IMG/VR virus record: IMGVR_UViG_2617270945_000001
Coordinates: 1-4,288 of that record
DNA from: a virus
Lineage: Duplodnaviria; Heunggongvirae; Uroviricota; Caudoviricetes
Strand: one strand, 5' to 3'
Length of the DNA: 4,288 nt
In this document: in pieces, positions 153 through 3,927 of the stretch
Layout of the letters: every line of letters starts with the position of its first letter
Numbering within the stretch: position 1 is the stretch's first letter
Program-made: the position numbers and the translations under genes
Notes under the pieces: generated by a model
Told to the model about the DNA's origin: nothing
Seen by the model: only the letters and a program-made list of their open reading frames with translations
Databases searched by the model: none

Positions 153-1277
153 ATGAAGACGAAAAACACGCCCAAACTTGCTTATGCCATTCTGAATGCC
201 ATCAGCCTGTCCGCAGACGGGGACGGTGACTGGTGTCAGATCATGCCAGCCGGTCGGGTAAAGGCCCGTGACGGTCGCCCGGAAAAACCGGCGGAAGGCT
301 GGCTGATTAACCATGCGGCCGTTGAGCGCATGGTATCCGGGGTCGTGGCACTCAATCAGCCGGTGAAGATTGACTATAACCACCAGTCACTGATTGAGGG
401 GCATGCGGCACCGGCTGCCGGTTTTGTCATGGCCTCGCCGGAGAACTTCCGTTTCAGTGAAGAGCGGGGTTTTGAAGTGCGTCCGAAGTGGAACCCTCCG
501 GCCATTGAACACCTGCGCAATAACGAATTTCCCTGGTTTTCCCCGGTGATTGGTTATGACGAAATCACCGGTGAACCTGTTGAGCTCCGGATGCTGGCTA
601 TTACCGGTGACCCCGGTCTGACTGGCATGAATCCTGTCGCCGCACTGTCGGCGGATGACCTTTATAACGCCTTAAACCCTCCTTTAAAGGACACCTCCAT
701 GAATGAGCAATTACGCCAGTTGCTGACGGCGCTCGGTCTGACCGTGGCTGACGGTGACGAATTTACGCCGGAACTGGGCACGGCGGCGCTGTCTGCCCTT
801 ACCGGGATCAAAACCCGTGCGGATGCGCACGACACCCTGAAAACGCAGGTTGCCAGCCTGTCGGCAGAGCTGGAAACCGCAAAAGGCACACCAACTGGCG
901 GCACTATTGATCTGACGAAATACGTGCCCGTTGAGACGTATAACGCCCTGCGTACCGAATATGTCGCGTTGTCGGCACAACACGGCAGCACCACGCTGGA
1001 GCAGTTGCTGGATAAGGCCGAGTCCGAAGGACGCATTTTCAAAAGCGAACGCGGATACATGGAAGGACTCGGACAACAGATTGGTGTTGCGGCACTTTCT
1101 GCACAGCTTGACGCCCGCCAGCCGGTTGCGGCTCTGACCACTCTTCAGACCGACACCGTGACCGTGCCGGATAAAAAGACCGCCACCGCTGTGCTGTCGG
1201 CTGAAGATATCGCCGCCGCCCATCTGCTGGGTAAAACCGAAGCCGAGTTCCTGAAAATGAAAGAGGAAATGCAATAA
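153..1277 (+). CDS. I: Mu gpI-like prohead protease/scaffold protein (374 aa)
   Basis: Long ORF with coding-like codon usage, immediately upstream of and overlapping (TAATG) the major head gene, as in Mu. Ala/Leu/Glu-rich, coiled-coil-like C-terminal half fits a scaffold domain. Family assignment is from recalled similarity to Mu-like prophage I proteins, not a search. The SD at the 153 start is weak, but no alternative in-frame start exists between the upstream stop (126-128) and 153. Confidence 0.8.
   Translation: MKTKNTPKLAYAILNAISLSADGDGDWCQIMPAGRVKARDGRPEKPAEGWLINHAAVERMVSGVVALNQPVKIDYNHQSLIEGHAAPAAGFVMASPENFRFSEERGFEVRPKWNPPAIEHLRNNEFPWFSPVIGYDEITGEPVELRMLAITGDPGLTGMNPVAALSADDLYNALNPPLKDTSMNEQLRQLLTALGLTVADGDEFTPELGTAALSALTGIKTRADAHDTLKTQVASLSAELETAKGTPTGGTIDLTKYVPVETYNALRTEYVALSAQHGSTTLEQLLDKAESEGRIFKSERGYMEGLGQQIGVAALSAQLDARQPVAALTTLQTDTVTVPDKKTATAVLSAEDIAAAHLLGKTEAEFLKMKEEMQ
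699..1277 (+). CDS. Z: Putative nested in-frame scaffold protein (Mu gpZ-like, 193 aa) from internal initiation within the gpI-like gene
   Basis: Seen: in-frame ATG at 699 preceded by AAGGA (687-691) with 7-nt spacing; downstream region is the coiled-coil-like C-terminal part. As far as I recall, Mu scaffold Z is made by internal initiation within I; applying that here is inference. Confidence 0.4.
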   Translation: MNEQLRQLLTALGLTVADGDEFTPELGTAALSALTGIKTRADAHDTLKTQVASLSAELETAKGTPTGGTIDLTKYVPVETYNALRTEYVALSAQHGSTTLEQLLDKAESEGRIFKSERGYMEGLGQQIGVAALSAQLDARQPVAALTTLQTDTVTVPDKKTATAVLSAEDIAAAHLLGKTEAEFLKMKEEMQ

Positions 1278-2224
1278 TGCCTACCCCGATTACACCGGCG
1301 ATGATCACCGCCCTGATGACGGGCTACCGTTCTGATTTTCAGGCCGGGATGTCCATGGCTCCGTCTCAGTACCAGAAAATTGCGATGACCGTACCGTCCA
1401 CGTCGAAATCCAACACCTACGGCTGGCTTGGGCAGTTCCCGCAGTTCCGTGAGTGGATCGGCTCCCGCGTCATCGAGAAGATGAAAGCCTATGGCTACGC
1501 CATCGTGAACAAAACCTTCGAAGGCACCGTCGCCATTAGCCGCGATGACTTCGAAGACGACAATCTTGGCATCTACTCCCCGTTGTTCCAGGAGATGGGG
1601 CGCGCTGCGGCGGCACAACCGGATGAACTGGTCTTTGCTGCACTGCGTGATGGTCTGAATGCGGCCTGCTATGACGGCCAGAACTTCTTTGATACCGAAC
1701 ACCCGGTTTACCCCAAAGTGGATAGCTCCGGGGATGCACAGATGGTCAGCAATATGTTTGTGGCAAAAACCGGCTCTGTCGGTGCACAGGCGGATTACAG
1801 TGGCCCGGCCTGGTATCTGCTCGACTGCTCCCGCGCGGTAAAACCGCTGATTTATCAGGATCGCCGTAAGGCCGAACTGGTTGCCCAGACAAAAGTCGAT
1901 GAAGGCCGTGCGTTTACTGATAACGAGTTTGTGTTCGGTGCTTCCGCCCGTCGCAATGTGGGCTACGGCTTCTGGCAGATGGCCTACATGATGCAGTCAC
2001 CGCTGACGCTGGATGCGCTGTGGCACGGCTGGTCAGCCATGCGTGACTTTAAGGCTGACGGTGGCCGCAAACTCGGCATCAAACCCACCCATATTGTTGT
2101 CCCCACCTCGCTGGAAAAACAGGCGGTGCAGCTGCTGGAGCGCGAGCTGTTCGCGGACGGTAACACCACCGTCTCTAACGAGATGAAGGGCAAGCTGGAG
2201 CTGGTTGTCGCGGATTATCTGTAA
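1277..2224 (+). CDS. T: Major head (capsid) subunit, Mu gpT-like (315 aa)
   Basis: Strong SD AAGAGGAAA (1261-1269) 7 nt upstream of the ATG at 1277, which overlaps the upstream TAA by 1 nt. Codon usage is strongly biased to preferred enterobacterial codons (ctg, ccg, gcg, cgt, ggc, acc), as expected for a highly expressed capsid gene. Size and position match Mu T; family assigned from recalled similarity. Confidence 0.88.
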   Translation: MPTPITPAMITALMTGYRSDFQAGMSMAPSQYQKIAMTVPSTSKSNTYGWLGQFPQFREWIGSRVIEKMKAYGYAIVNKTFEGTVAISRDDFEDDNLGIYSPLFQEMGRAAAAQPDELVFAALRDGLNAACYDGQNFFDTEHPVYPKVDSSGDAQMVSNMFVAKTGSVGAQADYSGPAWYLLDCSRAVKPLIYQDRRKAELVAQTKVDEGRAFTDNEFVFGASARRNVGYGFWQMAYMMQSPLTLDALWHGWSAMRDFKADGGRKLGIKPTHIVVPTSLEKQAVQLLERELFADGNTTVSNEMKGKLELVVADYL

Positions 2225-2231
2225 ACGGAGA

Positions 2232-2250
2232 GCCGGGCTTACGGCCCGGC
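2232..2250 (+). promoter_or_regulatory. GC-rich stem-loop (GCCGGGC-ttacg-GCCCGGC) in the 43-nt gap after the capsid gene; not a canonical intrinsic terminator
   Basis: Seen: perfect 7-bp all-GC stem with a 5-nt loop starting 8 nt after the gpT stop; no U-tract follows (ccctgcggagggcaaat). Sits just upstream of the SD (GGAGG, 2258-2262) of the next gene. Confidence 0.4.
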
Positions 2251-2267
2251 CCCTGCGGAGGGCAAAT

Positions 2268-2669
2268 ATGAATGAACATCACACTGTGGCAGCAACAGAT
2301 GATTCAGGTCTTCGGGTCAGTGGTGACAGTCCTGTCACGGTACTGGCAGAAGTGCGTTGCAGTCGTACGCAGTTTCGTCGTGCGGGGTTCCTGTTCATGC
2401 GGGGACGCCAGCAGGTTGACGTCACCCCGGAGCAGCTTGCCCGACTGGAAGCGGAGCCATGCCTCACTGTACGAATACTACAGACGACTGGTGATGATGC
2501 GGGAGCCGTGGCGGGTGTGGTTCATGCAGCGACCGGTGCAGATTTAGCTGAAGCCGAAGCCGAAGCCGAAGCCGAAGCCGAAGCCGAAGCCGAAGCCGAA
2601 GCCGGACAGGATGCTCCCCGGAAAAAGACCGGCAATAAAGCTAAACAGGAAAAAAAGGCGCGCGCATGA
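2268..2669 (+). CDS. Small protein in the Mup35 position (133 aa): N-terminal domain, (Glu-Ala)9 acidic linker, Lys-rich basic C-terminal tail
   Basis: SD GGAGG (2258-2262) 5 nt before the ATG at 2268; stop overlaps the next gene's start as ATGA (2666-2669). The open frame extends upstream to 2205, but 2268 is the first ATG with an SD. Amino-acid composition is normal for this frame, unlike the overlapping frame. Function unknown; position between T and the gp36-like gene matches Mu. Confidence 0.65.
   Translation: MNEHHTVAATDDSGLRVSGDSPVTVLAEVRCSRTQFRRAGFLFMRGRQQVDVTPEQLARLEAEPCLTVRILQTTGDDAGAVAGVVHAATGADLAEAEAEAEAEAEAEAEAEAGQDAPRKKTGNKAKQEKKARA
2547..2606 (+). repeat. In-frame hexanucleotide microsatellite: GCTGAA + (GCCGAA)x8 + GCCGGA, encoding (AE)9-AG
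   Basis: Seen directly: eight perfect tandem GCCGAA copies at 2553-2600, flanked by one degenerate unit on each side; in frame 0 it encodes alternating Ala-Glu. Confidence 0.95.
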
Positions 2670-3085
2670 ATTACGCCACCGAAACCGATATGCGGGCGCG
2701 TTACCGCGAGGATTTGCTCAGGCCATTACTGGCCGTGCCCCGTTCGGATGAACCGGACACGCGCAAGCTGAACCGGGCACTGACGGACGCGTCTGCCCTT
2801 ATCGACAGCTATCTGTCTTCCCGTTACACGCTGCCGCTGGCGGTGGTTCCGGCGGTCCTTGTTCAGCATTGCTGCACGATTGCCTTTTATTACCTGTGCG
2901 ATCAGCGGGCATCCGATCAGGCGCGTGACCGTTACCGTGAGGCGCTGGCCTGGCTGAAAGATGTCATGAACGGTAACGTGCCGGTCGGCGTGGATACAGA
3001 CGGTGCGGCCCCTGAATCCGGGGATTTACCGCAGGTGCAGTCTGATGCGGCGGTGTTCGGGCGCAACCAGAAGGGCTTTATATGA
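2666..3085 (+). CDS. Mu gp36-like protein (139 aa; gene J position), putative head completion / head-tail joining protein
   Basis: ATG at 2666 overlaps the upstream stop (ATGA); AAGG at 2655-2658 serves as SD. Stop overlaps the next start as ATGA (3082-3085). Position after T and Mup35 matches Mu gp36. Function is inferred from family and position. Confidence 0.75.
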   Translation: MNYATETDMRARYREDLLRPLLAVPRSDEPDTRKLNRALTDASALIDSYLSSRYTLPLAVVPAVLVQHCCTIAFYYLCDQRASDQARDRYREALAWLKDVMNGNVPVGVDTDGAAPESGDLPQVQSDAAVFGRNQKGFI

Positions 3086-3645
3086 TTACGGAAACCGAGC
3101 AGGCGTACATCGCCCGTATCCGTGAGTATTTCGGGAATGAACTGGTGTCTGTTGACACACATCCCGGCGACTGGAGCGACAGCGTACTGCGCACCATGCT
3201 GATTAACGCCCCGGCTATCTATGTTGCCTGGCTGGGTGCCGGTGAAGGGCGTACCCGTGGGCGTCTGGTCAGTCACTGGGTGTTCTACGTCATCGGCGAC
3301 ATGCTCAATGGCCGTGAGGTCAGCCGTCCCGGGCTTTATCAGATTGTGGCCCGCCTGATTACCGTGCTGGACGGCTTCAGAGCAGAAAAAACCTCACCGC
3401 TTTACTTTGAAAAGGCGGTCAACGGTTACACCGAAACGCAGGCAGGCAGCGGTGCCGTGATGTACGCCCTGTATTTCTCATGCGAGGAAATGATCGACCC
3501 GCTGACGGATATCAGCTCGCTGGATGATTTCCTGCGCCATTACGAAACCTTTACCGAACCGGAAGGCACGCCGGAGTTTAAGGCACACATCCGTCTGCCT
3601 GGTGCAACTGCCGCCGGTGAAAACGCCGGACCGTCAGAGGAATAA
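3082..3645 (+). CDS. Mu gp37-like protein (187 aa; gene K position), putative head/neck morphogenesis protein
   Basis: ATG at 3082 in an ATGA overlap, SD AAGGG at 3071-3075; coding-like composition; position matches Mu gp37. Exact function not determinable from sequence. Confidence 0.75.
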   Translation: MITETEQAYIARIREYFGNELVSVDTHPGDWSDSVLRTMLINAPAIYVAWLGAGEGRTRGRLVSHWVFYVIGDMLNGREVSRPGLYQIVARLITVLDGFRAEKTSPLYFEKAVNGYTETQAGSGAVMYALYFSCEEMIDPLTDISSLDDFLRHYETFTEPEGTPEFKAHIRLPGATAAGENAGPSEE

Positions 3646-3648
3646 CAG

Positions 3649-3927
3649 ATGACAACCATTTTTATTAAACCTGCGCCGGGATGCCTGATTCGCGATCCCG
3701 ACACGATGACTCCGCTCTCACAGGACGGTGAAGAGAAACCCTTCACCCCGTTCTGGTGCCGCCGTCTTAATGATGGCGACGTCATTGTGGTGGATAAAAC
3801 GGCGGAGCCTGCCCCGGCTGCCACAACTGCTAATACCGGCGAGGCTGCAAAACCAGCGGGAGCGGTAGCAGAAAAAACTGCGGCGGTGGCTGAAAAAACC
3901 GCAGCATCAGATAAGGGGACGTCCTGA
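3649..3927 (+). CDS. Small protein in the Mup38 position (92 aa) with an Ala/Lys/Thr-rich low-complexity C-terminal tail
   Basis: SD GAGGA (3637-3641) 7 nt before the ATG at 3649; its TGA overlaps the ATG of the tail sheath gene (TGATGA, 3925-3929). Contains the duplicated AVAEKTA motif. Confidence 0.65.
   Translation: MTTIFIKPAPGCLIRDPDTMTPLSQDGEEKPFTPFWCRRLNDGDVIVVDKTAEPAPAATTANTGEAAKPAGAVAEKTAAVAEKTAASDKGTS
3862..3903 (+). repeat. Two tandem 21-bp units, each encoding AVAEKTA, differing only at 4 synonymous third-codon positions
   Basis: Seen: gcg gta gca gaa aaa act gcg (3862-3882) versus gcg gtg gct gaa aaa acc gca (3883-3903), in frame with the 3649 ORF. Confidence 0.9.

Follow-up and report, generated by a model that had tools for sequence, protein, structure and literature searches.

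An in-phase A_AAA_AAG heptamer at the Mup35-like/gp36 gene junction of an E. coli Mu-like prophage is very probably a chance motif of one sublineage

The A_AAA_AAG heptamer close to the 3' end of the Mup35-like gene, in the 4,288-nt stretch of prophage DNA analysed here as a whole (the window), is very probably a chance motif of one sublineage and not a selected recoding signal. A reading made from the sequence alone (the sequence-only reading) had proposed a dnaX-type programmed -1 frameshift at this site, giving a Mup35-like/gp36 fusion. That proposal is not supported, since the heptamer is polymorphic in near-identical prophages and no stimulator lies at a working distance from it. The same reading had offered coincidence as the simpler explanation, a Lys-rich tail and the gp36 Shine-Dalgarno (SD) element being written in one A/G run, and this is the account that the alignment favours, because the AGG of the SD is invariant while the A-run changes.

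Genes and features of the window

The window covers the head and connector module of an E. coli Mu-like prophage; its genes were assigned by Pfam, and their order matches Mu genes I/Z-T-35-36-37-38-L (Table 1). The gene names Mup35-like and gp36-like, given earlier without database searches, are upheld by PF17891 at 2268-2669 and PF07030 at 2666-3085, and the E. coli homologues are annotated in RefSeq as 'HI1506-related protein' (Mup35-like) and 'gp436 family protein' (gp36). Among 5,426 complete E. coli genomes, 228 have Mu-like prophages that match the segment 2200-3100, at 267 places in all and with 80-99% identity. The gp36 of the window is 47% identical to that of Mu, which forms a dodecameric head-tail adaptor in the cryo-EM structure of Mu; Mu gp35 is thought to be connector-related and was not resolved in that structure (PMC11915804). 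A promoter and terminator scan of 2150-2800 returned nothing relevant on the + strand.

Table 1. Positions of genes and sequence elements in the window
Feature	Position	Strand	Remarks
gpI protease/scaffold	153-1277		Pfam E 2e-73
gpT major head protein	1277-2224		Pfam E 5e-119
HI1506-related / Mup35-like gene, 133 aa	2268-2669	+	FluMu_N PF17891, E 5e-9
(GAAGCC)n hexamer tandem repeat	2546-2604	+	Period 6, 9.8 copies, 98% matches; encodes EA repeat
A_AAA_AAG heptamer	2651-2657	+	Zero frame of Mup35-like gene, gaA AAA AAG = E K K
AAGG, gp36 Shine-Dalgarno element	2655-2658	+	7 nt before ATG 2666; overlaps last three heptamer bases
Weak interrupted hairpin	2658-2699	+	Sole candidate downstream structure; stem includes gp36 AUG
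ATGA stop/start overlap	2666-2669	+	gp36 ATG 2666-2668, Mup35-like TGA 2667-2669
gp36 gene, head-tail adaptor, 139 aa	2666-3085	+	Phage_Mu_Gp36 PF07030, E 7e-36
gp37	3082-3645		Pfam E 3e-15
DUF2635	3649-3927		Pfam E 4e-19

Anatomy of the heptamer and chance expectation

The last codons of the Mup35-like gene read cag(2646) gaA(2649) AAA(2652) AAG(2655) gcg cgc gca TGA, with the heptamer in the zero frame as the sequence-only reading had it, and AAAAAAG occurs only once in the whole window. In the zero frame the ORF terminates at TGA 2667-2669. A -1 slip at the heptamer would enter the gp36 frame, the next codons being GGC GCG CGC ATG AAT TAC with the ATG at 2666, again as described before; the GCGCGCGC run was also located where it had been placed, at 2658-2665. 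The fusion would contain the junction peptide ..QEKKGARMNYATE.., and its computed size of 272 aa and 29.55 kDa agrees with the earlier estimate of about 29 kDa, the separate products being computed at 14.08 kDa (Mup35-like) and 15.50 kDa (gp36). Upstream, the gp36 frame is closed by TAA 2642-2644 and opens only at 2645. The -1 phase of gp36 follows from the ATGA overlap, because in any gene pair that overlaps in this manner the second gene is in the -1 frame.

The frequency of such motifs was compared with a synonymous shuffle in which the protein sequences were fixed and the window's own codon usage was applied. Across the six window genes, 4 in-phase XXXYYYZ heptamers were observed against 3.7 expected, and the heptamer count is no higher than chance gives. 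At the E-K-K residues in particular, the shuffle produced A_AAA_AAG with a probability of 0.14 and any heptamer with a probability of 0.41. A point against the chance reading is that an in-frame copy of this motif is not trivial. Few heptamers provoke more shifting in E. coli than A_AAA_AAG, and the genes of this species show strong avoidance of it in frame, with z -10.1 (Sharma et al., PMC4066793).

Conservation among related prophages

Loci were gathered from IMG/VR (34), from species-representative genomes (32), from Mu and SfMu, and from E. coli chromosomes (11, including 10 that were sampled directly). The close family, defined by gp36 at least 95% identical, comprises 33 loci including the window and contains 15 distinct 100-nt junction variants. 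The in-phase heptamer is present in four of these variants, as GAA AAA AAG in three (the window, L005/L006 and L016) and as AAA AAA AAG in one (E. coli CI5). Eight variants read GCG AAA AAG, with Ala replacing Glu, and one reads GCG AGA AAG. In the two others the KK codons are lost (..GAA/AAA CAG GCC CGT GCA TGA); this KK-less type includes one found in sampled matches that score like O157:H7 prophages. The changes at the junction are non-synonymous (Glu, Lys, Ala or deletion), the flanking columns vary freely among the 15 variants, and synonymous variation around the heptamer is not suppressed in the close-family alignment. Four loci (L001-L004) have a gp36 match of 100% in the scan, yet carry GCG AAA AAG in place of the heptamer. 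As the motif is polymorphic despite a 100% gp36 match, nothing holds it in place.

Outside the close family, 42 distant loci were covered (gp36 33-69% identical; Salmonella/Citrobacter type, Mu, SfMu, Aeromonas, Rhizobiales and others), and an in-phase heptamer in the last 30 codons of the upstream ORF was found in none of them. The alignment of homologues, which the sequence-only reading had suggested as a check, therefore turned out against its own proposal, the heptamer being missing from 11 of 15 close variants and from every distant locus.

These absences, including those in phages with a 100% gp36 match, weigh heavily on the possibility of a genuine dnaX/IS3-type programmed -1 frameshift, in which a set fraction of ribosomes makes a functional 29.6-kDa fusion that enters the connector. 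In favour of such a frameshift are the in-phase heptamer with a -1 frame open into gp36, a motif that is highly shift-prone in E. coli when stimulated, the assignment of both partners to the head-tail connector region, and a product that would be a clean, full-length two-domain fusion. Set against the alleles, it is considered highly improbable. A narrower version, confined to the QEKK/QKKK sublineage, supposes that a small selected -1 fraction exists there and that the fusion tethers the still-unplaced gp35-type protein to the dodecameric adaptor ring; it is given an equally slim chance. If this version were true, a frameshift would have newly arisen in the head-tail connector and would do without classical stimulators. 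A programmed frameshift in the Mu-like connector module would, if true, also give a clue to the position of the gp35-type protein in the virion.

The alleles bear also on whether the A-run is a homopolymer sequencing or assembly error and the heptamer an artefact. Homopolymer runs are error-prone on some platforms, but the alleles differ by substitution (GCG / GAA / AAA) and not in run length, the frame and the ATGA are intact in all of them, and GAA AAA AAG occurs in three independent IMG/VR contigs (L005, L006 and L016). On the ground that the alleles differ by substitution rather than length, this explanation was rejected, with next to no probability left to it.

The allele of E. coli CI5 (L070, NZ_CP011018.1) is CAG AAA AAA AAG at the equivalent of 2646-2657, with eight consecutive A and the in-phase heptamer kept. 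Over 2560-2780, CI5 is the closest complete E. coli genome (97.7% identity), and none is identical. A 34-nt megablast query, with the heptamer in every 28-mer, gave no match among the 5,426 complete E. coli genomes; as the low-complexity filter probably masks the A7 and (GC)4 runs of the query, this absence of matches carries no weight.

Stimulatory elements

No SD-like element is present 6-17 nt upstream of the heptamer, the distance criterion for such a stimulator in Sharma et al. (PMC4066793); positions 2634-2645 are aataaagctaaa and contain no GGAG, AGGA or GAGG. The sole AGGA nearby (2647-2650) directly adjoins the heptamer. An SD adjoining the heptamer that closely reportedly does not favour a -1 shift, as Larsen et al. 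are said to have found in 1994.

Downstream, the hairpin at 2658-2699 folds with -16 kcal/mol (z -0.94), a stability equalled or exceeded by 31 of 200 shuffles. It begins 1 nt past the heptamer, so that the spacer measures about 1 nt. Folds with a start 4-6 nt past the heptamer are no better than shuffles (z +0.7 and +1.6). Among the 15 variants no compensatory change was detected in this hairpin and its covariation score equals that of shuffles; two of its pairs are broken, in 5 and 9 of the 15 variants. It was ruled out as a frameshift stimulator by its spacing, its significance and the absence of covariation, in line with the doubt that the sequence-only reading had itself expressed about a downstream stimulator. 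With no stimulator at a functional distance, and a hairpin that is neither significant nor covarying, the case for a programmed frameshift is further reduced. If active, the hairpin would cover the gp36 start as long as no upstream ribosome had opened the structure, which would be coupling and not stimulation; the weak hairpin over the gp36 AUG is consistent with coupling but not significant.

The gp36 ribosome-binding site and the ATGA overlap

In contrast to the A-run, the AGG at 2656-2658 is invariant in all 15 close variants (A21, G22 and G23 of alignment A2), and the Mu record annotates the RBS of gene 36, GAGG, at the same distance as the AGG of the window. The best reading of the AAG-G that closes the run is therefore the gp36 Shine-Dalgarno, as had been pointed out when the heptamer was first described. 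The ATGA overlap is common to all 33 close loci, Mu and SfMu, and a 4-nt or 1-nt stop/start overlap is kept in about half of the distant loci. Since AGG and ATGA are both conserved, the junction is read as an ordinary translational-coupling junction. It has the hallmarks of an overlapping gene pair, with a stop that overlaps the start and an SD inside the upstream coding sequence within 5-10 nt. At Mu genes 35 and 36 there is likewise an ATGA overlap of 4 nt, and a purine-rich SD falls within the coding sequence of the upstream gene, 7 nt ahead of the ATG; the order T-35-36-37-38-L is shared as well, and the overlap is conserved from Mu to the window prophage. Translation of the Mup35-like/gp36 pair is thus probably coupled, and gp36 would be a product in its own right, arising through ordinary initiation or through termination and reinitiation at the ATGA.

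Origin of the motif in the Mup35-like tail

The Mup35-like protein consists of an N-terminal FluMu_N domain, followed by an (EA)n repeat and a basic tail, ...PRKKTGNKAKQEKKARA. Its similarity to Mu gp35 (47% identity) covers residues 21-63 only. Mu gp35 has a folded C-terminal region, whereas the C-terminal half of the Mup35-like protein is unrelated to it and is made of the acidic EA repeat and the basic tail. Because the repeat and tail replace the Mu-type gp35 C-terminal region, Lys codons sit over the gp36 SD in the window.

This part of the gene varies among relatives. In eight of the E. coli prophages sampled, the (GAAGCC)n copy number lies between 2 and 13 units, and a pattern search detected no such repeat in two further sampled E. 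coli prophages. The array behaves as a variable-number tandem repeat, and the length of the Mup35-like gene, 351 to 426 nt across relatives, varies because the copy number varies.

In the chance reading, the heptamer would arise where a fast-evolving, Lys-rich and probably disordered C-terminal tail (..QEKKARA) is written with AAA and AAG codons. The last Lys codon, AAG, followed by G, would then double as the gp36 Shine-Dalgarno (AAGG).

Comparison with known frameshift systems

The site has a zero-frame X_XXY_YYZ motif and a -1 frame open into a defined product, as programmed frameshift sites do. Absent are a stimulatory structure downstream, an upstream SD-like stimulator (which is optional) and conservation among homologues. 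With E. coli dnaX and the IS3 family (IS911, IS2, IS3) it shares the identical zero-frame A_AAA_AAG, and, as in IS3 orfA-orfB, a shift would fuse two adjacent ORFs. Unlike the dnaX and IS3 sites, it lacks both an SD-like element at 6-17 nt on the upstream side and a stable hairpin or pseudoknot set several nt downstream of the heptamer; its motif is not conserved and synonymous variation is not suppressed.

Lambda G/GT and the ECs1801-type cluster share with the window a phage structural-gene setting, in which the protein of a small ORF would be lengthened by a -1 shift close to the ORF's end. In the cluster data of Sharma et al. (PMC4066793), A_AAA_AAG_25 and G_GGA_AAG_4 carry the mark 'true'. 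The lambda G/GT-type shift is conserved from phage to phage and is located between the tail tube gene and the gene for the tape measure. The junction in the window belongs to the head-tail connector module, between capsid and adaptor genes and upstream of the gene for the tail sheath, and its motif is not conserved. In the Enterobacteriaceae conserved-motif screen of Sharma et al., the Mup35-like/gp36 site is not among the prophage clusters in the part of the paper used here, which are tail chaperone and tail-fibre genes (PMC4066793); this also speaks against a programmed frameshift. A literature search for a known frameshift at Mu 35/36 or HI1506 found none.

Natural fusions were also sought. 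Among the best 120 gp36 homologue clusters listed from a collection of 5.8 billion proteins, none is a FluMu_N+gp36 fusion, all being 109-146 aa long with PF07030 only, which again counts against a programmed product. With the hypothetical fusion as query against the 5.8-billion-protein database, only 3 matches were scored, the EA repeat swamping the search.

One of these 3 is a joined protein related to 1277-3085 of the window, P0001 from a Logan assembly, predicted at 280 aa, in which the N-terminal 158 residues of gpT are joined directly to gp36 residue 9 (..YPKVD|MRARY..). It was rejected as a Mup35/gp36 fusion, being a deletion or assembly chimera that lacks the rest of gpT and the whole Mup35-like gene.

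Expected level of unselected slippage

Published rates set the scale of what the heptamer could do without selection. In Table S3 of Sharma et al. (2014, NAR, PMC4066793), A_AAA_AAG without a stimulator gives 0.291 ± 0.015% -1 frameshifting in E. coli, rising to 4.3% with the IS911 SD and hairpin and to 39% with the IS3 pseudoknot, and the background without the motif is given in the same paper as about 0.055%. The paper also mentions that some proven frameshift sites, for example IS1, have no known stimulator (PMC4066793), a further point against the chance reading. As slippage of the heptamer without a stimulator is about 0.3%, a trace of fusion is the most that would be expected.

A functionless trace fusion, made by ribosomal or RNA-polymerase slippage on A7 or A8, is on balance probable. 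Such slippage is compatible with the chance-motif explanation and differs from it only in whether any product exists. The excess of 0.291% over the 0.055% background argues for it, as do the eight A in a row of the CI5 allele and the avoidance of AAAAAAA in all frames, which Sharma et al. attribute to transcriptional slippage or indels (PMC4066793). On the other side, the 0.291% was measured in a different sequence context, and the AGGA directly adjoins the heptamer. Efficient transcriptional slippage takes runs of about nine bases, more than the A7 of the window. A slippage rate higher than the 0.3% baseline is possible in the window context. With the heptamer taken as a chance motif, alleles that bear it would then show a trace of unselected -1 slippage, in about 0.3% of the ribosomes translating the Mup35-like gene and without consequence.

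A second in-frame heptamer in the gpI gene

A second efficient in-phase heptamer, T_TTA_AAG, was observed at 683-689 in the gpI protease/scaffold gene, 10 nt before an internal in-frame ATG at 699 that aligns with the start of the Mu scaffold Z (MNE...). It overlaps the SD (AAAGGA) of ATG 699. A -1 slip here would stop after 5 codons (GHLHE*), leaving a protease-only product. E. coli STEC299 (L037) has the motif in identical form and Mu lacks it; most probably it is an in-frame reading of the Z ribosome-binding site (AAAGGA).

The heptamers at 2651 and 683 are both best read as ribosome-binding sites that lie within an upstream reading frame. Where phage operons are gene-dense, purine-rich sites of this kind, together with ATGA overlaps, will repeatedly yield in-phase heptamers that read into the next gene. 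Motif and phase alone should not be scored as recoding, as the two cases in this one window illustrate, and candidate frameshift sites can be filtered cheaply and decisively by asking whether close alleles conserve them.

Other observations

A 91-aa ORF beginning with ATG, at 2272-2547 in the +1 frame, lies wholly inside the Mup35-like gene, its start 4 nt after that of the latter, and is probably spurious.

A strong GC hairpin is present at 2231-2252 (GCCGGGC-TTAC-GGCCCGGC), just past the stop of the major head gene and with no T-run; the fold of 2222-2270 has -21.7 kcal/mol. The hairpin of Mu at the same place has a T-run and is annotated as a TransTermHP terminator. Close relatives have a hairpin-forming sequence at this position, one variant with a stem change to G-U, and a Tolumonas prophage has one with a different stem sequence. 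The hairpin may be a conserved attenuator or mRNA-stabilising element that separates the high-copy capsid gene from the low-copy connector genes.
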